NCBI GenBank assembly: GCA_965217585.1
Contig: OZ244561.1
Span: forward strand, 3,200,001-3,264,000
Origin: Candidatus Latescibacterota bacterium
GTDB lineage: Bacteria > Latescibacterota > UBA2968 > UBA8231
Reading direction: 5' to 3'
Length of the DNA stretch: 64,000 nucleotides
The translations under genes and the position numbers were made by a program. Positions 48,175 through 57,811 of the stretch are shown piece by piece. Position 1 is the stretch's first letter; each line of letters begins with the position of its first letter. Under the pieces are notes generated by a model that ran no database searches, had not been told where the DNA came from, and was given only the letters and a program-made list of their open reading frames with translations.

Positions 48175-48381
48175 ATGATGCAATCGAAGGAATTTGGAAG
48201 ACCGAGTTCGCGTGACCAGCGGGTGCGAGGACTGCGGCGAATTCAGGTATGGGTCCCCGAAACCCGGAGCGAGAAGTTCCGGGCTGAGGCCCATTGCCAG
48301 TCGCTCGCAGTGGCGCAAAGCGAGGGCGAACGCGAGGATCAGACCTTCATCGAAGAGATCTCAGACCACGACCTAACATGA
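48175..48381 (+). CDS. MazE-like (DUF3018) antitoxin
   Basis: GLRRIQVWVPETRSEKFRAEAHCQS; ATGA overlap with the toxin. Confidence 0.85.
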   Translation: MMQSKEFGRPSSRDQRVRGLRRIQVWVPETRSEKFRAEAHCQSLAVAQSEGEREDQTFIEEISDHDLT

Positions 48382-48737
48382 AGCGCGGCGAAATTTGGAC
48401 GGTTTCAGCTACCGGCTACGCTGGTAAACCGCGTCCTGCCGTCGTCGTCCAAAGCGATCATTTCGACGCCACCGCGTCGGTGACGATCTGCGTTTTCACT
48501 ACCAACGAAACAGAAGCTCCTCTATTCCGCCTGCCGATCGGCCCAAGCGAGCGCAACGGCCTGCGCTCTGTCTCGCGGCTAATGGTAGATAAGATGACCA
48601 CGGTGTCCAGAGAACGGTTGGGGAGGCGGATCGGCTATCTCGAAGACGCCGATATCGTCCGCTTAAATCGGGCACTCTTGGTATTTCTCGGCTTGATCGC
48701 CGATGACGCGGAGGAAGATGGCACCGACAATAGTTAG
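48378..48737 (+). CDS. mazF: MazF/PemK toxin
   Basis: MKRGEIWTV, GKPRPAVVVQ, NGLR..S.LMVDK. Confidence 0.92.
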   Translation: MKRGEIWTVSATGYAGKPRPAVVVQSDHFDATASVTICVFTTNETEAPLFRLPIGPSERNGLRSVSRLMVDKMTTVSRERLGRRIGYLEDADIVRLNRALLVFLGLIADDAEEDGTDNS

Positions 48738-48790: not shown

Positions 48791-49485
48791 TCACCCGCCG
48801 CCTTCACGGCCTTCATGACTTTCACCGCTTTCGCCGCCTTCACCGCCTTCACCGCCTTCACCCCTGCCTTCGCCACTTGGGCAGTTGCAGTCAAACACCT
48901 CCGGATGGATCTCCCAGGCGTCGAAAGCTACTCCCGCCGCCAGCGGCTCGTCGTCGACCAACAGTTCAGTGATCGCACTGGCACCCGGTGCTAAATCGCC
49001 GACTGGGAACGGTCCCAACTCGACGACCGTGCGCGTGCCCTGCTTGAGGTTGAGTTCGATCTGGACGGAGCAGGCGGTCAGCGCCATCGCGTTCTCGACG
49101 ATGCCCGAGAACGAGCGCCTGACCGGGTCATAGGACATGGCCACGCGCAGGCCGTTGACGACGCCGTCAAACGACTCGTCGAGCGCGAGGATCGGACTCG
49201 ATGGATCGCCTTCACCGCCTTCACCGCCTTCGGCATGGCCGCTAGTCTCATTACCCTCGCCTTCACCACCTTCGCCACCCTCACCACCTTCACCGCCTCC
49301 GTGTTCGCCAGCGCCGACCTCCGCATGGGGTGACCAGCCAGCAAAAGCCTGACCACCGACAGGCAGGGAAACGTATAGCTTCTCACCTGGCGTGAGGCTC
49401 CTCGGCCAAGTGGGTCCCAACTCCGCGATGATCGCGCCGGACTCGTCGGACAGATGCACTTCCACCCGCACCCGGAGTAAAGTTT
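48791..49485 (-). pseudogene. 5'-truncated repeat protein with beta-sandwich (FxLYD-like) modules and GEGGEG linkers
   Basis: Two similar modules (RVRVEVHL..ELGP..L.PG..W..H.EV) with Gly/Glu linkers; cut at the IS terminal repeat. Confidence 0.65.
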
Positions 49486-49598
49486 GGGAATTATATACCT
49501 GAGTAACCAAAACACCTCCTTTTGTGGTATAACCGCGAGATGGAGTCATCTAGGCTTCACTCTCTTCGCGGCTTATCCCACGTACAGGAGGTGTTTTT

Positions 49599-50543
49599 AT
49601 GACCACGAAGAAAGGGCCGGGCCAGTCCTTTCGCAAGGGGCTTTCCCTGCCCGAATTAGTCCGCATGTTCCCCGACGACGCCACGGCGGAGGCGTGGTTT
49701 GCCGATACGAGATGGCCTAATGGCGTCTTGTGTCCGTACTGCCAGTCTGAGCGCGTGCAGTCTGGCAGTACGCATCCGACTATGCCGTATCGTTGCCGCG
49801 ACTGCCGTAAGTTTTTCAGCGTCCGCACGGGCACCGTCATGGCCGATACCAAGCTAGGGTATCAGACTTGGATATTGGCGATCTACTTATTGACAACGAG
49901 CCTCAAGGGCACGTCGTCGATGAAGCTGCACCGCGACCTAGGTGTCACGCAGAAAACCGCATGGCATCTGGCGCACCGTATTCGCGCTATGTGGCAGAAG
50001 GACGTCGAAGCGCTCCTAGCGGGTCCTGTCGAGGCCGACGAGACCTATATAGGCGGCAAGGAGGCCAACAAGCACGAAAGCAAGAAGCTGCACGCCGGGC
50101 GCGGCACCGTAGGCAAGATCCCTGTAACAGGTCTCAAGGATCGAGTCACTAAGGAAGTACGAGCACAAGTAACCCAGCCCGTCAACCGCGCTAACGTCAA
50201 AGGCTTTGTGGAAGAGAATATGACCTTAGAGTCTATGCTGTACACAGACGAAAGCAGCATCTACGAGGGGTTCCCCAACCATGAAGCCGTCCAGCATAGC
50301 GTCGGCGAATACGTGCGCGATCAAGCCCATACCAACGGCATTGAGTCGTTTTGGGCTTTGCTCAAGCGTGGCTATTACGGCACGTACCACAAGATGAGCG
50401 AGAAGCACCTAGCCCGATATATAGGCGAGTTCGCCGGGCGGCATAATGCACGCGCCGTCGATACCATTCAGCAGATGGCGTTGATGGCGCAAGGGATGCT
50501 GGGAAAGCGGGTGCTCTATCGGGAACTCATAGCGGACGCATAG
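49599..50543 (+). CDS. IS1595 family transposase
   Basis: RWPNG..CPYC..YRCRDC zinc ribbon; VEADETYIGG, YTDE, HTNGIESFW. Confidence 0.95.
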   Translation: MTTKKGPGQSFRKGLSLPELVRMFPDDATAEAWFADTRWPNGVLCPYCQSERVQSGSTHPTMPYRCRDCRKFFSVRTGTVMADTKLGYQTWILAIYLLTTSLKGTSSMKLHRDLGVTQKTAWHLAHRIRAMWQKDVEALLAGPVEADETYIGGKEANKHESKKLHAGRGTVGKIPVTGLKDRVTKEVRAQVTQPVNRANVKGFVEENMTLESMLYTDESSIYEGFPNHEAVQHSVGEYVRDQAHTNGIESFWALLKRGYYGTYHKMSEKHLARYIGEFAGRHNARAVDTIQQMALMAQGMLGKRVLYRELIADA

Positions 50544-50545
50544 CG

Positions 50546-50588
50546 AGAAGTGTCCAAGGCTGTTTCAAGTCTTGGACACTTCTTTTTT
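50546..50588 (+). terminator. Intrinsic terminator after the transposase
   Basis: AGAAGTGTCCAAG...CTTGGACACTTCT stem plus T run. Confidence 0.85.
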
Positions 50589-50618
50589 AGCTCGCAAAGG
50601 TAGGGTTCTGATTTTGTC

Positions 50619-50647
50619 TTGATCCTAATCTCAGAACCGGGTATACT
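50619..50647 (+). promoter_or_regulatory. Candidate sigma70 promoter for the cargo
   Basis: TTGATC-N17-TATACT. Confidence 0.6.
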
Positions 50648-50771
50648 GGCATAGACAGCAGCAACTAATAGGCCCCGCTAGCTCTCCGTTAAGAGAATCA
50701 GCGGGGCACCCCTTTGCCTTAGCGTCTGGCAGGACGCGAAAGGGCTTAGCCATAGAAGAAAGGACCTTCTA

Positions 50772-51068
50772 ATGACTAGTAGTACCTCTAAGTATAACCA
50801 ATCCCTGCAAAAAGAACAGTCCCATTTATCAACAGCTCGGCCTCGGCATCCTTATGCCTTCTGTCAATGTGAAGGCGACGAGTGCGTCGAATGTACGCTA
50901 GAAGAAAGAGAGCAAATAGGCCGAGGTATTGTAGAGTTGGCTGCTTTGAATAAACAGATCCATGCCTATCGCCAATGCTCTCACATCAGGCTTGACAGTA
51001 TACCTGATGTATTTAGCTTGTTCTCCCGTCAACATCCAGACAGGCCCGCTTGTCGGGGGGCTTGCTGA
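50772..51068 (+). CDS. Small Cys-rich hypothetical protein (IS cargo)
   Basis: RBS AAAGGA; CQCEGDECVEC motif. Confidence 0.5.
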   Translation: MTSSTSKYNQSLQKEQSHLSTARPRHPYAFCQCEGDECVECTLEEREQIGRGIVELAALNKQIHAYRQCSHIRLDSIPDVFSLFSRQHPDRPACRGAC

Positions 51069-51527
51069 ATACAACAGCCAGTAAACGGGCTGGGGTCGCT
51101 CCCCGGCCTAGGTGAATAGGCAAGGACCGTCCCGCAATATACCTGTGTGGATGTTGACAACCGCCCGGCTCCCTCGGCGGGAGGGAGCCAAAACAGTCAA
51201 CGCCTCACAAGGAGACAGCGGGATGGAAAACGCCGAAGAAAAAGGGCTAATCGAGAAGGGCAAAGAGACATCGGAAGAAGCACTGAGCGATGTTCTGGGA
51301 TGGGCACTAGATAAATCCGCGATGGAGCTTGGCCCTATTGATAGTGCCCAAGAAATAGCCGAAGACTTTATCGGTAAGCATAATACAACATATGAAGATG
51401 CCGAGGAGCTCATTAATTGGCAAATAGCAAAATCAGGGGGCATAGGCTTCTTGACTGGCTTACTCGGGCCTATATCCGCTATTGCCGGTATCCCAGCAAG
51501 CCTAGCGGCTGTGACCTTTGTTCAGTT

Positions 51528-52829
51528 AGTTGAATTCGACAGGTAGGTGTATTACGCGGCCTTTCTGTAGGTTCGTTTTTGGTTATGTTCAATCTGTTGT
51601 CGAGCACTCTGCCAAGCAAAATTTCGCTTGAGGGTAAACGCACTCCACGGTCCTTGGTGGGGAATCTCCCGATGCCGAAGATGGATCAAAACCAAGTAGG
51701 CCATAACAGACAACGCGACGGAGCGTTCGACTCGTTGGGTCTGCTTGGTCACCTGGGCTTGTCCTAATCCGGTGGCCCCTTTCAATTCTTTGATGAGCAG
51801 TTCTACGTGCCAGCGGCGGGTATACAGCACGACGAGTTGGCCTGCGGTCACGTCCGGTAGATTGGTCACCAGGATTTTGGTTTGTTTCGGCGAATCGTTG
51901 CGCCGTTTCTTGCTCAAGACCAACGTGACATCTCCGATGTGTCGCAGGCGTTTACGACCGCGGTAGACCCAATAGACCCGCCGACGGGAGCCGTGCGGAC
52001 GAAACCAGATTTTTCGATAACAGGTGTAGCGCGTGTGATTGACCCAATCTTTGAGCGTATGGCCGTCTTCAAACTTCCAGGTGCGGGGCAAACTCATGAC
52101 GAAAAAGAAGCCCCGTTGCTGGATCAAGTGCAGCGTTTCTTTAGCGGGAAACCCGGCATCGGCGACCACGATCACTTGCTGGGCCCAAGCCGGTGGCACC
52201 AAAGCGGCCAGCATCTGACGAAACAACACATTGGGTTTCTGATAGGCCGGGTCTTCTTTACGCCGAACCAACTCGAAATCGATAGGGATTCGATAATTGC
52301 CCCACTGCAGCATGACCAGGATCACTTCAAACCCCCACAGAAAGGGACTATAGCCATCGGCGCGGGCTTTGCGCACCAACGGATGTTTCTTGGCCACCTT
52401 GGCTTTGTAGGTCCCGTCGACGATCACTAACACCCGACCGTCTTCCGCCGGTGGCAGCCCGGCGATCACCGCATCGACCAAGTACCCCAACAGCAACCGC
52501 CAACTCCAGTAGGTCGCATACAGCAACCGACGTAAGTGCCATTCCGCTATATGGTTAGGACCCAGGCGGGCTAAACCACACAGCGTCGCTTTATCTTGAT
52601 AGATTAACAACAGCGTCATACTCCAACAGAACACCAGATGATGGCGATGACGAAAAAAATGTTGAGTCCCACGCAAAAAATAACGAAGGTTGACCGGCAA
52701 GCGAGTTAGTTGCAGCATCGGAGTTTCCCTGGGGTAGATGATCCATGGCGGTGAATCAAGCTATCCCAAAATAGGGAGACTCCGATGCCTGTTCGAGCCT
52801 AAATATCAACCTACCTGTCGAATTCAACT
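51528..52829 (-). mobile_element. Nested DDE insertion sequence (IS701/IS4-like)
   Basis: 21-bp TIR AGTTGAATTCGACAGGTAGGT with CAGTT duplication (or 20-bp TIR with TCAGTTA duplication). Confidence 0.92.
51552..52718 (-). CDS. DDE transposase
   Basis: IVDGT, VADAGF, YTRRWHVELLIKELK (YREK motif). Confidence 0.92.
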   Translation of the reverse strand: MLQLTRLPVNLRYFLRGTQHFFRHRHHLVFCWSMTLLLIYQDKATLCGLARLGPNHIAEWHLRRLLYATYWSWRLLLGYLVDAVIAGLPPAEDGRVLVIVDGTYKAKVAKKHPLVRKARADGYSPFLWGFEVILVMLQWGNYRIPIDFELVRRKEDPAYQKPNVLFRQMLAALVPPAWAQQVIVVADAGFPAKETLHLIQQRGFFFVMSLPRTWKFEDGHTLKDWVNHTRYTCYRKIWFRPHGSRRRVYWVYRGRKRLRHIGDVTLVLSKKRRNDSPKQTKILVTNLPDVTAGQLVVLYTRRWHVELLIKELKGATGLGQAQVTKQTQRVERSVALSVMAYLVLIHLRHREIPHQGPWSAFTLKRNFAWQSARQQIEHNQKRTYRKAA

Positions 52830-53331
52830 CAGTTACGTATGATTGCCGCTATCGCCCACATGGGGGGCTACAACATTAATGACGACCGTGTTAAAGCTCT
52901 ATGTCTCGCCTGTCTCTGTGGCAATGCTGCCAATAAGATCGTCAAGGAAGCAGGCGTAGAGGCCGGTAAAAGACTGCTTGTAGCTGTTGCTATGAAATTT
53001 CCCGGCAAGGCCGTCGATAAAGTCTGTAGAGCCGTTGCCGCCAAACTACTTGTTGGAGCTGGCGTAAAAACGGGAACGCAACTAAGCAAGTTTATACCCA
53101 TATTCGGAGGACTCGTCAATGGTGCGGTAGATGCCGCCTTCACCAAAGTCGTCGGCGTCGCTGCCGCTAAAGTCTTCATAGGTGAAAACGATAGCAAAGT
53201 CGCTAAAAGATCAAAAGCCATAAGCATCTAAAAGTGGTTCGGATAAGGCCACGTCGGGCATACTTGACCTAAAGGGCGTCGGGCAGTAGCTTGACGCCCT
53301 TCCCATGCCACCATCTTAAAGGAGACAGACG

Positions 53332-53583
53332 ATGGCCGATCAAGAAAAACCCTATCACATAGCTAGCATGGTTATAAACTGTAGTTTTCGCTCTGCTAGC
53401 GAAGGCCCGAGAAGAGGGCACGTAGCACGCACCACAATTTTTCTATCACGGCAGACGGACGACGACCTTGAGATACCTTTAAATCTTCCAGCCGCTGCCG
53501 CTGCTGCTCTATTGCGCGAATTGTCGCTTGACGAAGACGCTCATTATTCCCAACACCTCTTGCAAGAACTGGGTCCCACATAG
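53332..53583 (+). CDS. Hypothetical protein (IS cargo)
   Basis: RBS AAAGGAG; 83 aa; no recognisable family. Confidence 0.55.
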   Translation: MADQEKPYHIASMVINCSFRSASEGPRRGHVARTTIFLSRQTDDDLEIPLNLPAAAAAALLRELSLDEDAHYSQHLLQELGPT

Positions 53584-53621
53584 TTTCATCAGATTCAGAC
53601 TGTTTTTCTCTTAACGCTACA

Positions 53622-53702
53622 GTCATAACTATTCTCCTTTTTGAATAGTCGTGAGGTTTTCTTGCGATGTACGTAACCCGTTGTATTTCAGCGGGTTACT
53701 TC
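53622..53702 (-). repeat. Hairpin+RBS+ATG unit, inner copy
   Basis: 31-bp CGTAACCCGTTGTATTTCAGCGGGTTACTTC (53672-53702) identical to 54107-54137; minus-strand AAGGAG..ATGAC follows. Confidence 0.85.
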
Positions 53703-53772
53703 GATTATAGGCATAGCAGAAAAGGCCATAGAGAAAAAATGGATACTACCGGACTTACCCTAGGACGATAAC

Positions 53773-54006
53773 ATGGCTAATGTCTACGAAAACATAGGCA
53801 AACTCTTTTCGCAGATTATCGGCGTTGTAGAAGTTCTATTCGCGGATGATCCACAGTTCACAAAAAAGTTTGACGAAGATGTCAACGGCCGTCTTGAAGA
53901 ACTTTCCCCGGAACAACTTGATGCCCTAATGGCTCGCTTGGCGTCTGCAAGTGGACAGGAGAGATTTTCTGCGCTACGCAAGACGATAGAAGACCTTTTT
54001 GCCTAG
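53773..54006 (+). CDS. Hypothetical helical protein (IS cargo)
   Basis: AGGA upstream; 77 aa amphipathic sequence. Confidence 0.55.
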   Translation: MANVYENIGKLFSQIIGVVEVLFADDPQFTKKFDEDVNGRLEELSPEQLDALMARLASASGQERFSALRKTIEDLFA

Positions 54007-54056
54007 CACGCTCTTTCTTAAAGGCTTCCCTAACTACGTTACATTGATTTTCCGTC

Positions 54057-54137
54057 GTCATAATTATTCCCCTTTTTTACAGGTTTATGGGTTTTTACCC
54101 ATTTTGCGTAACCCGTTGTATTTCAGCGGGTTACTTC
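54057..54137 (-). repeat. Hairpin+RBS+ATG unit, outer copy adjoining the right TIR
   Basis: Same 31-bp core; minus-strand AAGGGG..ATGAC. Confidence 0.85.
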
Positions 54138-54165
54138 TTTTTGGTTACTCAGGTATATAATTCCC

Positions 54166-54288
54166 TTTGAAAAGCAGCTCTTGTGGGATGCCTATCTAAA
54201 GGCAAACAAGGTCAAAGCCGACGCCGCGAAATTGCTCGGTATCGAACGAACCACTTTCCGCTACAAATTTGAAAAATATGAACTGTAG
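54166..54288 (+). pseudogene. C-terminal Fis-type HTH remnant of an NtrC-like regulator
   Basis: FEKQLLWDAYLKANKVKADAAKLLGIERTTFRYKFEKYEL*, starting exactly at the IS end. Confidence 0.8.
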
Positions 54289-54311
54289 TCTCTCGGCGAG
54301 CGTTCAGGACT

Positions 54312-55205
54312 ATGCTTTTTAGCTGGCGGCGTCTCCTGTTATTTTTCGCCATCTCAATCGGGGCGGTGCCAGCGGCGTTCACGCAGGAACCGACCCTACA
54401 GAACCTGAGAATACAAATCGAACAACTCGCCGAACAGGTCGAAGGCATCTCGGCGGAGAGCAACAAACTGCTGCGCGAAAACGAGCAGTTGACCGATAGG
54501 ATCCGCACGGCCAAACAAGACCTGCAACAAGGCCGCGGCCGACTGCTTGAGCGACAGCTACAGGACGACCTGCAGGCGTCCCGGGAATTATCGGACCGGA
54601 TCCAGGCGCTCGACGACCGGATCTATGCACTTACCGAGGAATCGGTCGGCAAGCAACGTACGCTCGTGGGCATGCTGAACGCCGAAATCGAGCGGCTTTC
54701 TGGGGAAGCCCGCGTCGCCAAAGACGCCAAGTCCAAGGCCCGGATCCTTTCCAAGGTGCTGAAATTTCAGGAGGAAGTAGAAACCTACCGGGAGCAAATG
54801 GCCAGAGAGTCCAGCGAGTTGCTGTTGTCGTTGGATGTCGCCCCGGCGCAAACCGACGGCCCCGATGAGATCCAGCAGAAATTAGCCGTGCTCCAAGACC
54901 AGCAGGATATTATACGGACCAAAATCGGAGAGCTTGACCGGCAGATCCGCGAAACCAGTAAAGCACTCGATTTGCGGCGCAACATGCTGGAGTTGCTCCG
55001 CGACATTCGCCGCGGGGAAGAAGACGAATTCGATCTCGACCGCAACCTCGATATCGCCGAATTGGAAGGCGAGATTGCGGATGCGGAATCGGCGCTGGAA
55101 ATTTGGCGAGCCAAACGGGAGAGCTGGTACGCCAAAGAAAAAATCCACGGTGAGAAAGCGGTACATCTCGCCCGGGAACTCAAGAATATGCTCCAAGGAA
55201 AGTGA
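54312..55205 (+). CDS. Secreted coiled-coil hypothetical protein
   Basis: Signal peptide followed by long heptad repeats. Confidence 0.75.
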   Translation: MLFSWRRLLLFFAISIGAVPAAFTQEPTLQNLRIQIEQLAEQVEGISAESNKLLRENEQLTDRIRTAKQDLQQGRGRLLERQLQDDLQASRELSDRIQALDDRIYALTEESVGKQRTLVGMLNAEIERLSGEARVAKDAKSKARILSKVLKFQEEVETYREQMARESSELLLSLDVAPAQTDGPDEIQQKLAVLQDQQDIIRTKIGELDRQIRETSKALDLRRNMLELLRDIRRGEEDEFDLDRNLDIAELEGEIADAESALEIWRAKRESWYAKEKIHGEKAVHLARELKNMLQGK

Positions 55206-56345: not shown

Positions 56346-56500
56346 TCAACTACCGCCCCTAAAGGAGGCGGCTTGTCCCTAACCTACCCTGCCGCAGCGG
56401 AGGAGGCCGAAACTATAGGCGCGTTGACAAGTGCCTTTGCCCGGATGTTCCGGGCGGCGTTGTAATCAGCGTGAGCTTGATAGCCACACTGCTTACAACG
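56325..56500 (-). ncRNA. Predicted TnpB omega/reRNA plus flank-derived guide (bounds approximate)
   Basis: Inferred from known TnpB architecture: scaffold overlaps the tnpB 3' end and right-end hairpin; guide would read TAAAAGGAGTATTGCAG... Confidence 0.5.
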
Positions 56501-57625
56501 AAACTTGGATTGGGAGGAGCGATTAGCCCGCTCGATATGCCCACATTGGGAGCACATCTGACTGGTATGTTTGGGATCAACCAACATCAATTTTACGCCT
56601 GCTTGTTGGGCTTTATAGGCGATGAACTGTCTGAGTTGATCGAACCCCCATCCAGCGATCCGGGCACGTTGCGGCTTGCGAAACCGTATCCACGAGCGGA
56701 TACCCTTGAGGTCTTCAAGAGCGATACCGCTAGCGGTGTCTTTGGCCTTCGCAACGAGTCGCTTGGAGATACAGTGGTTGGTATTGCGCCGAAACCGCGC
56801 TTCGCGGTCTCCTATACGTTTGAGCTTCTTGCGGATGCGCTTACGGCGTCGGTGATTCTTGGCCAAGTCCGCCGCCGACTGAAGAGCTTGCTTGAGCGTT
56901 TGGTTTTTGACACGCACCCGCTCCACGCCTTGGCCCGAATGCTGTTGGCCATCCGAGTCCACAGCAAGGTTCTCGACACCCAAGTCCACGCCGAGAAAAT
57001 CATCAGGATCACACGGCGGTTCCGTGTCGAACTCGACCGTTGCCATCAAAAACCACTGGCCGTCTTTGCGACGCACCAGTTCGGCAAACAGCTTGACGTT
57101 GCCAAATTGCTCCGCTTGGTAGTCGCCCATCACCATCGGGATGTTATGGCGTTGCCCATCCGCTGTCTTGATGTTGAGCCTCTCCAAGCCCTTGTAACGG
57201 AACGCTCCTTTGCGGTAAGGAATCGCCGCCAACGGACGAAACAATACCCGTTTGCTCTTGTCGCGCTTGTAGTTAGCCGCTACCTGAGCAAACGTCAGGA
57301 TAGCAATATCGGCAGGAAGGTCAAACTTCTCGCGGACTTCGTAGTAGTACAACTTGTGCAACGCATAACTGTTGGCCAACTGGCGCTCAAATGCACGCTC
57401 AGCAACCCAATTACACGCAGCATTAAAGCGGCGCATCGTCTGTTCCAACGCACCGGCTTGTTCAGCCGTAGGAAGGAGTTTGACCTGAATTATTCGCTTC
57501 ATAATAGAAGCTATGGCTATAAGGCAGGACCGTGTCAAGCTATATCGTCCTTCACTCAGGGAACCTGCGGCCCCGTCGCTCAGGTCGCTCCCTTTGTCTC
57601 GTCTAAAGGCAGGTGAAGCCCCTGT
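56345..57625 (-). mobile_element. Non-autonomous IS200/IS605 (IS1341-like) element, tnpB only; left end approximate
   Basis: Right end AAGCCGCCTCCTTTAGGGGCGGTAGTTGAC on the minus strand; degenerate CTAAAGGC hairpin near 57590-57620; no tnpA. Confidence 0.8.
56384..57502 (-). CDS. tnpB: RNA-guided endonuclease TnpB
   Basis: RuvC residues in GVDLG, ALEDL and ADYNAARN; CSQC/CKQC zinc finger; start MKRIIQVKL. Confidence 0.95.
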   Translation of the reverse strand: MKRIIQVKLLPTAEQAGALEQTMRRFNAACNWVAERAFERQLANSYALHKLYYYEVREKFDLPADIAILTFAQVAANYKRDKSKRVLFRPLAAIPYRKGAFRYKGLERLNIKTADGQRHNIPMVMGDYQAEQFGNVKLFAELVRRKDGQWFLMATVEFDTEPPCDPDDFLGVDLGVENLAVDSDGQQHSGQGVERVRVKNQTLKQALQSAADLAKNHRRRKRIRKKLKRIGDREARFRRNTNHCISKRLVAKAKDTASGIALEDLKGIRSWIRFRKPQRARIAGWGFDQLRQFIAYKAQQAGVKLMLVDPKHTSQMCSQCGHIERANRSSQSKFRCKQCGYQAHADYNAARNIRAKALVNAPIVSASSAAAG

Positions 57626-57811
57626 CGCCTCGCTTTCCGTCGTCCGCATGGGCGACGCAAGACGACAGTCCCCAAGAGAGAACTTCTATGGCCTAACCGC
57701 GCTGCCCAACCTTGCTGCTACCAACGCCCGGCGATATAATGTATCCCCCTTGCGGCAAATTGCCCCTACGTAGTGCAAAACACCCGATGTAGATTTGAGA
57801 AGGCTTTAGAC

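Follow-up and report, generated by a model that had tools for sequence, protein, structure and literature searches.

Inward-facing translation starts and two candidate tandem cassettes at the right end of an IS1595-family transporter element in a Latescibacterota genome

Insertion sequences (ISs) of the IS1595 family that carry passenger genes have been described under the name transporter IS, as reported in the relevant passage of PMC3129680 (citing Siguier, Gagnevin & Chandler 2009). In T4-type phages, repeated stem-loop blocks termed PeSLs flank small orphan genes, and homologous exchange inserts, deletes or replaces genes there (Arbiol et al. 2010, PMC2839356; PMC4122927, excerpts). The excerpts of the first of these papers present a PeSL as a strong sigma-70 promoter joined to a terminator, found many times in one genome and with demonstrated recombination (PMC2839356). 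Here we describe two tandem units of small overlapping open reading frames (ORFs) at the right end of a transporter IS in the genome of a Candidatus Latescibacterota bacterium. The element lies in a stretch of 64,000 nucleotides (nt), referred to as the window and numbered from its first letter (NCBI GenBank assembly GCA_965217585.1, contig OZ244561.1, positions 3,200,001 to 3,264,000, forward strand). The closest analogy to the two units, if they are stacked cassettes, is with the PeSLs as these excerpts portray them: in the window, too, short repeated stem-loop blocks stand beside small orphan genes. Unlike the PeSLs of those excerpts, the blocks of the window number two, a promoter scan around the units returned no sigma-70-like sites, and recombination is inferred from a variant contig (X5) and from related elements. 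The claim of the initial annotation, made from the sequence alone, that no described system has this layout was thus too strong, transporter ISs and PeSLs both having been described. A full-text literature search, with the original 2009 family paper outside its range, returned neither a right-end cassette with an inward Shine-Dalgarno (SD) sequence and ATG nor stacked cassettes in IS1595 elements.

The element spans 4.68 kb (49486–54165), has the small-gene units at its right end, and is an IS1595-family transporter IS with passenger genes inside its terminal inverted repeats (TIRs). The left TIR (49486–49512) and the right TIR (54139–54165) are 27 nt long and complementary at 27 of 27 positions. 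An intact transposase of the IS1595/ISXO2 DDE type (314 amino acids (aa); 49599–50543, plus strand) matches PF12762 (E 1.1e-34; 120 bits, cut-off 27) and, at its N-terminus, the zinc ribbon PF12760 (E 5.6e-08; 33 bits, cut-off 25.4). Like the transporter ISs, the element combines an ISXO2/IS1595 transposase with a zinc ribbon, short TIRs, and passenger genes placed after the transposase and ahead of the right TIR. An 8-bp target-site duplication is a further feature of the IS1595 family and is present around intact relatives, unlike the window copy, where no such duplication was found (TAAAGTTT on the left, TTTGAAAA on the right). The genes on both sides are truncated, and this copy has probably undergone rearrangement since it inserted. 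The truncated gene on the right is a Fis-type regulator of which the element has left the last 40 codons (54166–54288, plus strand; PF02954 HTH_8, E 9.9e-09). The 7.32-Mb genome contains one copy of the element.

A repeat search of the right end found a single 81-nt direct repeat, at 53622–53702 and 54057–54137 (spacing 435), with 77% identity overall and an identical run of 31 nt (53672–53702 and 54107–54137). Each copy, here called a module, comprises a minus-strand ATG with its SD, a spacer and a 27-nt hairpin, GTAACCCGTTGTATTTCAGCGGGTTAC, located at 53673–53699 in the inner and at 54108–54134 in the outer copy. Read on the minus strand, both copies end in AAAAAGG(A/G)GAATA(G/A)TTATGAC, that is, an SD, seven nucleotides and an ATG (SD-N7-ATG). 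With up to three mismatches allowed, the hairpin occurs twice in the window and not once in 100 shuffles; the whole genome has the same two copies. On the plus strand the stem has 11 bp, including one G·U pair, and a 5-nt loop, and the outer hairpin is followed by TTCTTTTT; this is the sole terminator-like site that a scan of 53100–54400 returned. On the minus strand the G·U pair turns into an A-C mismatch, the stem is reduced to 8+2 bp, and there is no U tract after it. A gap of 4 nt separates the outer hairpin from the perfect 27-bp right TIR.

Each module launches a minus-strand ORF that overlaps a plus-strand ORF. In unit 1, the plus ORF p83 (83 aa; 53332–53583) is opposed by m76 (76 aa; 53396–53626), and in unit 2, p77 (77 aa; 53773–54006) is opposed by m59 (59 aa; 53882–54061), with 41 of the 59 codons of m59 antisense to p77. 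Both minus ORFs begin at the SD-N7-ATGAC of their module, and in both pairs codon position 1 faces codon position 1. Outside the module the units are unrelated: an alignment of their DNA confines the similarity to the module, the two plus products align by BLASTP at E = 0.33, and the two minus products do not align at all. The descriptive part of the initial annotation was thereby borne out, namely two opposed ORF pairs 435 bp apart, a repeated unit with 31 identical bp, ribosome-binding site and ATGAC, unrelated coding parts, and an outer hairpin at the right TIR.

Within unit 2, p77 is most likely the real gene. We used a codon model trained on the long ORFs of low GC content in this genome. 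For its calibration, true genes were scored against 104 shadow ORFs that lie antisense to them in the frame relation of the window pairs; the true frame came out ahead in 99% of cases, by 0.22 +/- 0.09 per codon. The log-odds of p77 over m59 are +0.19 to +0.21 per codon, inside the true-gene range. A single-sequence AF2 model of p77 has four helices at a pLDDT of 80.9, and the NCBI/ENA annotation calls p77 and p83 and neither of the minus ORFs. The ORFs are otherwise orphans. A homologue search with p77 matched itself alone, p83 was likewise without relatives, and an Atlas search gave no usable match for p77 and leads scoring below 0.9 throughout for m76. None of the four ORFs matches a family in Pfam, NCBIfam or PADLOC, and their matches in PHROGs are weak (E 0.011–0.098). 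Among 1.84 billion representatives, m76 has a single relative, P0002, which is almost the same protein except for a frameshifted tail.

The comparison with other elements relies on a protein-pattern scan of species genomes, which yielded 510 candidate stretches, 485 transposase relatives and, after selection, 80 loci. Many of the relatives are from metagenome-assembled genomes recorded as Latescibacterota, Gemmatimonadota, Acidobacteriota, Chloroflexota and Poribacteria. Both TIRs could be paired in 28 loci, with element lengths of 1.3–4.9 kb, so that passenger DNA is the rule; at least 10 of these 28 elements terminate with a small, basic ORF on the plus strand that contains a GRPPK...TPE motif. 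Seven cargo proteins of the window had no match at E <= 0.01 by tblastn in the 80 loci. The inward start was found six times in five elements: twice in the window and once each in G127, G142, G123:C79 and L009. The G127 element is complete, with an 8-bp target duplication, TTTTATAA, and carries its module, GTCATAATTATTTTCCTTTTT, 107 nt from the element end. In G142, G123:C79 and L009, whose transposases are 79%, 73% and 78% identical to that of the window, GTCAT/GCCAT-N7-CTCCTT lies 116, 89 and 78 nt from the element end, respectively. Among the six closest transposase relatives (at least 70% identity), the module is present in L009, L010 (= G142) and L011 (= G123:C79) and absent from L008, L012 and L018; the transposase of L008, an element with the target duplication TTTTCATA, is 89% identical to that of the window and of equal length. 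All six instances retain the SD and the ATG at a distance of 7 nt, while the adjoining spacer is no longer alignable.

The plus-strand gene that abuts the module is demonstrably real in G127, G142 and G123. The G127 ORF ending at the module has three database homologues (P0004–P0006; 78–88 aa, 71–88% identity) and further homologues in G142 and G123 (35–42% identity), which together make up what we call the p78 family. In all three elements the stop of the p78 gene overlaps the minus ATG (TAG-TCAT). An AF2 model built from the six sequences has four to five helices at a pLDDT of 88. Fold searches against the PDB had best E values of 4.1 for this model and 4.5 for that of p77, so neither was assigned a fold. 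The window units resemble these genes in several respects: p77 is similar to the p78 family in size, position and predicted helix pattern, which suggests homology, and the SD and start of p83, AAGGAGACAGACGATGGC, resemble those of the G127 p78 gene.

The content of the right end differs between related elements, and it is hicBA in G126, a p78-family gene in G127, G142 and G123, and other bases in X5. The latter is a sponge-metagenome contig from another study that follows the window at ~97% identity along an EcsC-like cargo gene to 53283 and rejoins it at 54142, inside the TIR; between these points it has 463 different bases in place of the 858 found here, a single cassette-sized replacement for the two units. 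A 9-bp hairpin after the EcsC-like gene (53272–53301) forms the left border of this variable region. In G126, a genome of the same genus, the TIR has no mismatch, the hairpin has one and adjoins the TIR, and hicB and hicA are on the minus strand (HicA 32.1 bits, Pfam cut-off 27; HicB-like 23.4 bits, below the cut-off). A DNA search with 53240–54138 in 168 genomes of the phylum matched nine, including that of the window; of the others, G126 alone matched in the module, and the remaining seven gave matches of 21–41 nt (E 3.5e-4 to 8e-3). The check proposed in the initial annotation, a search for the TIR and hairpin elsewhere and a count of units and cargo, gave the following: the TIR was found at up to three mismatches in 19 of the 168 genomes, the cargo varies, and arrays of more than two hairpin units were not encountered, relatives having one unit and the window alone two. 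A scan for the exact stem with a free loop added three metagenome contigs and one viral contig, which have other loops and unrelated flanks and are attributed to chance or to ordinary terminators.

We consider that there is slightly better than an even chance that the two units are stacked right-end cassettes of this transporter IS, joined by duplication or by recombination via the shared module. A cassette of the subclade would be the last ~450 bp before the right TIR and would consist of a plus-strand gene of ~77–83 codons, preceded by a short region that includes an SD and followed by the conserved module. On the minus strand the module would read AAGG(A/G)G-N7-ATG(A/G)C, 78–116 nt inside the TIR, followed in the window lineage by the 27-nt hairpin. 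The window would then hold two such cassettes in tandem (53284–53702 and 53703–54137) with unrelated genes and a common module, and the second could have been added by duplication, or by recombination through the module or its hairpin, with no need for a site-specific recombinase. The plus-strand ORFs would be the main products, a role with good support in the case of p77 and a possible one for p83. Plus-strand transcripts would end at the hairpin, the outer copy forming an intrinsic terminator with the T run on the inner side of the TIR, and the inward SD-ATG would give transcripts that come in through the right end, or start there, a conserved site of translation initiation. The minus ORFs would most likely be regulatory, as leader or antisense frames, or else shadows of the plus genes; toxin or immunity proteins would be less likely.

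Several observations weigh against these stacked cassettes or parts of the model. The way in which the second cassette was added can only be inferred; pairwise identities of the spacers, at 0.58–0.75, do not separate duplication from recombination. The addition of units at the transposon end, as initially proposed, is supported by their location and by the variable content, and its integron-like mechanism is not supported. The same range of identities led us to drop the idea of two module types, each found beside a TIR elsewhere, which it fails to separate. L008, G123:C28 and the X5 variant have no such hairpin at their right ends, and in G127 it has decayed, so it is not essential to the IS. 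The link between window genes and the p78 family is weak at the level of profiles: hhalign aligns p77 (residues 15–54) collinearly with residues 12–47 of the p78 profile at E 0.018 and p83 at E 0.08, and hmmsearch of p77 and p83 against the family gives 2.8 and 2.7 bits. The codon test is ambiguous for unit 1, at +0.03 per codon for p83 over its antisense frame, and in the P0002 copy of this unit a T5 run longer by one base would cut p83 short, while leaving the minus ORF open to 90 aa. A 198-nt contig from an RNA library covers 53856–54053 without a difference, but carries no strand, and the library may contain DNA. Gaps in the coverage of the stretch by X5, X9 and X10 were not counted as absences.

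The openness of the minus ORFs belongs with these points. They are open in all six instances (59, 67, 68, 71, 76 and 99 codons), and every time the first codon positions of the minus ORF and the plus gene face each other. Under permutation of synonymous codons in the plus gene, the probability of an antisense frame as open as that observed is 0.19 for p83, 0.19 for p77, 0.09 for G127, 0.14 for G142, 0.011 for G123 and 0.50 for L009. Fisher's method combines these values to p = 0.014 in the four relatives, which were not picked for openness, and to p = 0.011 in all six. As the window cases were picked for an open antisense frame and the relatives are kin, this result is suggestive only, and to that extent the six open ORFs fit real antisense genes better than shadows.

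This brings in the possibility of a true sense/antisense pair, in which both frames are translated and act together, for instance in a toxin-antitoxin-like or mutually repressing manner that stabilises or regulates the IS. We regard it as unlikely. Besides the openness and frame relation of the minus ORFs and the conservation of their start beside diverging spacers, it draws on L009, where the minus ORF is intact though the plus ORF has decayed, on the occurrence of toxin-antitoxin cargo (hicBA) elsewhere in the IS lineage, and on G142 and G123, where the minus SD lies inside a 9-bp stem with an upstream anti-SD, as a regulated start would have it. Opposed to this, the minus-strand proteins are P/S/Q-rich and disordered-looking and share no sequence beyond what the antisense constraint imposes, the significance of the openness is modest, m76 has nothing but its near-identical copy among the representatives, and the codon model prefers the plus frame both in unit 2 and in G127 (+0.10 per codon for the p78 gene). 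The toxin-immunity pairing put forward in the initial annotation found no backing in the family searches, which returned no toxin or immunity family for any of the four ORFs, and the layout is not that of a type II toxin-antitoxin system, as the window ORFs overlap on opposite strands and have no toxin or antitoxin domain matches; a true hicBA pair was present in G126 alone. About as improbable is a broader version, according to which the standard right-end cassette of an IS1595 subclade in sponge-associated bacteria is a fully overlapping sense/antisense pair, exchangeable and stackable via the module, with a ~78-aa helical protein set against an opposite ORF that has its own SD and ATG and starts at or just past the stop of the first gene.

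A regulatory use of the inward start has precedents. In some ISs, pairing of the SD with an anti-SD conceals a start codon on read-through transcripts; fold-back occlusion of translation starts and cis-antisense control are known from IS10 and IS50, and convergent type I toxin-antitoxin pairs exist. The likeness is that a start ~100 nt inside an IS end can pair with an upstream anti-SD, both at the right ends of G142 and G123 and at the transposase start of the window, and that transcripts from opposite strands would overlap. Unlike these systems, the right-end ORFs have an unconserved product, no small hydrophobic toxin is present and an antisense RNA is putative. At the left end of the window element, AACACCTCCT (49511–49520, beside the TIR) is exactly complementary to the SD region of the transposase, AGGAGGTGTT (49586–49595), and judged by this complementarity the pairing could hide the transposase start on transcripts that read in from outside.

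A more one-sided view takes the minus ORFs, or at least m76, as the real genes, the 81-nt repeat as the shared promoter and 5´ untranslated region of two inward passenger genes, and the plus ORFs as shadows. The conserved block stops exactly at the minus ATG, and inward right-end genes are common in this IS group, with hicBA in G126 and, judged from translations, putative HNH- and NUDIX-like ORFs in L115 and L116; the ambiguous codon test of unit 1 and the T5/T6 variant, which breaks p83 and keeps the minus ORF, point in the same direction. The view is nevertheless rather improbable, for the module abuts a demonstrably real plus gene in three relatives, p77 is favoured by codon statistics and a confident fold, m59 and m76 are in no family and, as weak evidence, the public annotation calls the plus ORFs. 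We give the same low probability to a neutral relic, that is, a decaying remnant of a tandem duplication that the right end of the IS underwent long ago, its modules and ORFs having no present function. The orphan status of all four ORFs would suit a relic, as would the lack of a target duplication, a cargo gene broken by another IS and the decayed hairpin of G127. Decay is harder to reconcile with an SD-N7-ATG that is kept at transposase identities down to 73%, next to spacers that can no longer be aligned, with 31 nt that are identical between copies of 77% overall identity, or with the gene-like codon usage and confident fold of p77.

The attC sites of integrons are imperfect palindromes of roughly 57–141 nt with core sites and bulged bases. 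The right end of the window element recalls an integron array in that unrelated small genes stand in tandem and a hairpin-forming repeat closes each unit, and differs from one in having two units, a 27-nt hairpin and no integrase, inside a DDE transposon. The integron-like array of the initial annotation, with cassettes added by site-specific recombination at an attC-like hairpin, is therefore very improbable, in spite of two units with unrelated cargo and identical hairpins, of cassette content that varies between related elements and of hairpin ends (..GTAAC / GTTAC..) that loosely recall attC core sites: the sole recombinase of the element is the DDE transposase, no tyrosine recombinase (PF00589) is encoded in the window and the nearest of five in the genome is ~105 kb away (genome position 3,359,651), the hairpin, compared by length and shape, is perfectly paired with no bulges, the genome has two copies of it, the metagenome and viral scans for its exact stem gave 3 and 1 matches, all with unrelated flanks, and relatives have one unit, several of them without the hairpin.

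If the two units are indeed stacked cassettes, the passenger end of a simple DDE IS could be built from exchangeable ~450-bp orphan-gene units without integron machinery, and such units would offer one route for new small genes among the genomes of sponge symbionts. The inward start, which opens long antisense frames across real genes in every instance seen, is a concrete candidate for regulation at the IS end or for true antisense-overlapping genes. Should both frames be translated and interact, they would constitute a new kind of regulatory or addiction module of mobile elements and a rare conserved antisense-overlapping gene pair in bacteria. A candidate phage-defence gene on the same element, described below, links the cassettes to the traffic of defence genes.

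This candidate is an EcsC-like gene upstream of the units, split into two parts (51112–51527 and 52830–53231, plus strand) that match PADLOC PDC-S29 (E 5.4e-18 for the N part, 3.5e-35 for the C part) and PF12787 EcsC (E 0.001). It is interrupted by an IS4-like insertion (51528–52829; 21-bp TIRs; transposase 51552–52718, minus strand, PF01609), and we therefore regard it as a candidate defence gene knocked out by a second IS. Its 3´ part was found in none of 75 other genomes of the family. A non-coding stretch ahead of cargo genes in related elements corresponds to 51024–51231 (blastn 69–87% identity, nine related IS loci). It measures ~150–200 nt, occurs in either orientation, is located upstream of cargo in the window, G142 and G123:C79, and is shared by loci that include L137, L138, L008, L009, L011 and L018. 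The Rfam family sRNA-Xcc1 matches it weakly (20–26 bits, 20 in the window, against a gathering score of 53), and a scan of 49400–54400 with Rfam gave nothing near gathering scores. The stretch may be a shared promoter or leader of the cargo or a novel RNA.

Some further features of the relatives were recorded. The G127 element carries a tRNA gene (L130 1368–1445; Rfam tRNA, 56 bits) to which ARAGORN assigns a four-base anticodon (tgcg) in an 8-nt anticodon loop. In L093 (~872–1447 and 2283–2490), the IS of G126 is a remnant made up of the transposase tail, hicBA and the right end, and is bordered on both sides by ~150-bp copies of one host gene segment, far longer than an 8-bp duplication. The right flanks of many related elements are TTTNAAAA-like (tttgaaaag, tttgagaag, tttaaaatg, ttttataag), which suggests a preference for AT-rich, near-palindromic targets. 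The idea of an orthologous insertion site in G129 and G134 was dropped, as the match is limited to the TIR and ~10 nt of flank and reflects target preference and no common insertion. The region around the window element is dense in mobile elements. A mazE-like/mazF (PemK)-like pair is located ~0.75 kb to the left of the IS (48175–48737; E 2.3e-15 and 8.8e-22), and 2.2 kb to its right is a TnpB-like gene (56384–57649, minus strand) with Cas12f1-like TNB and OrfB_IS605 domains.

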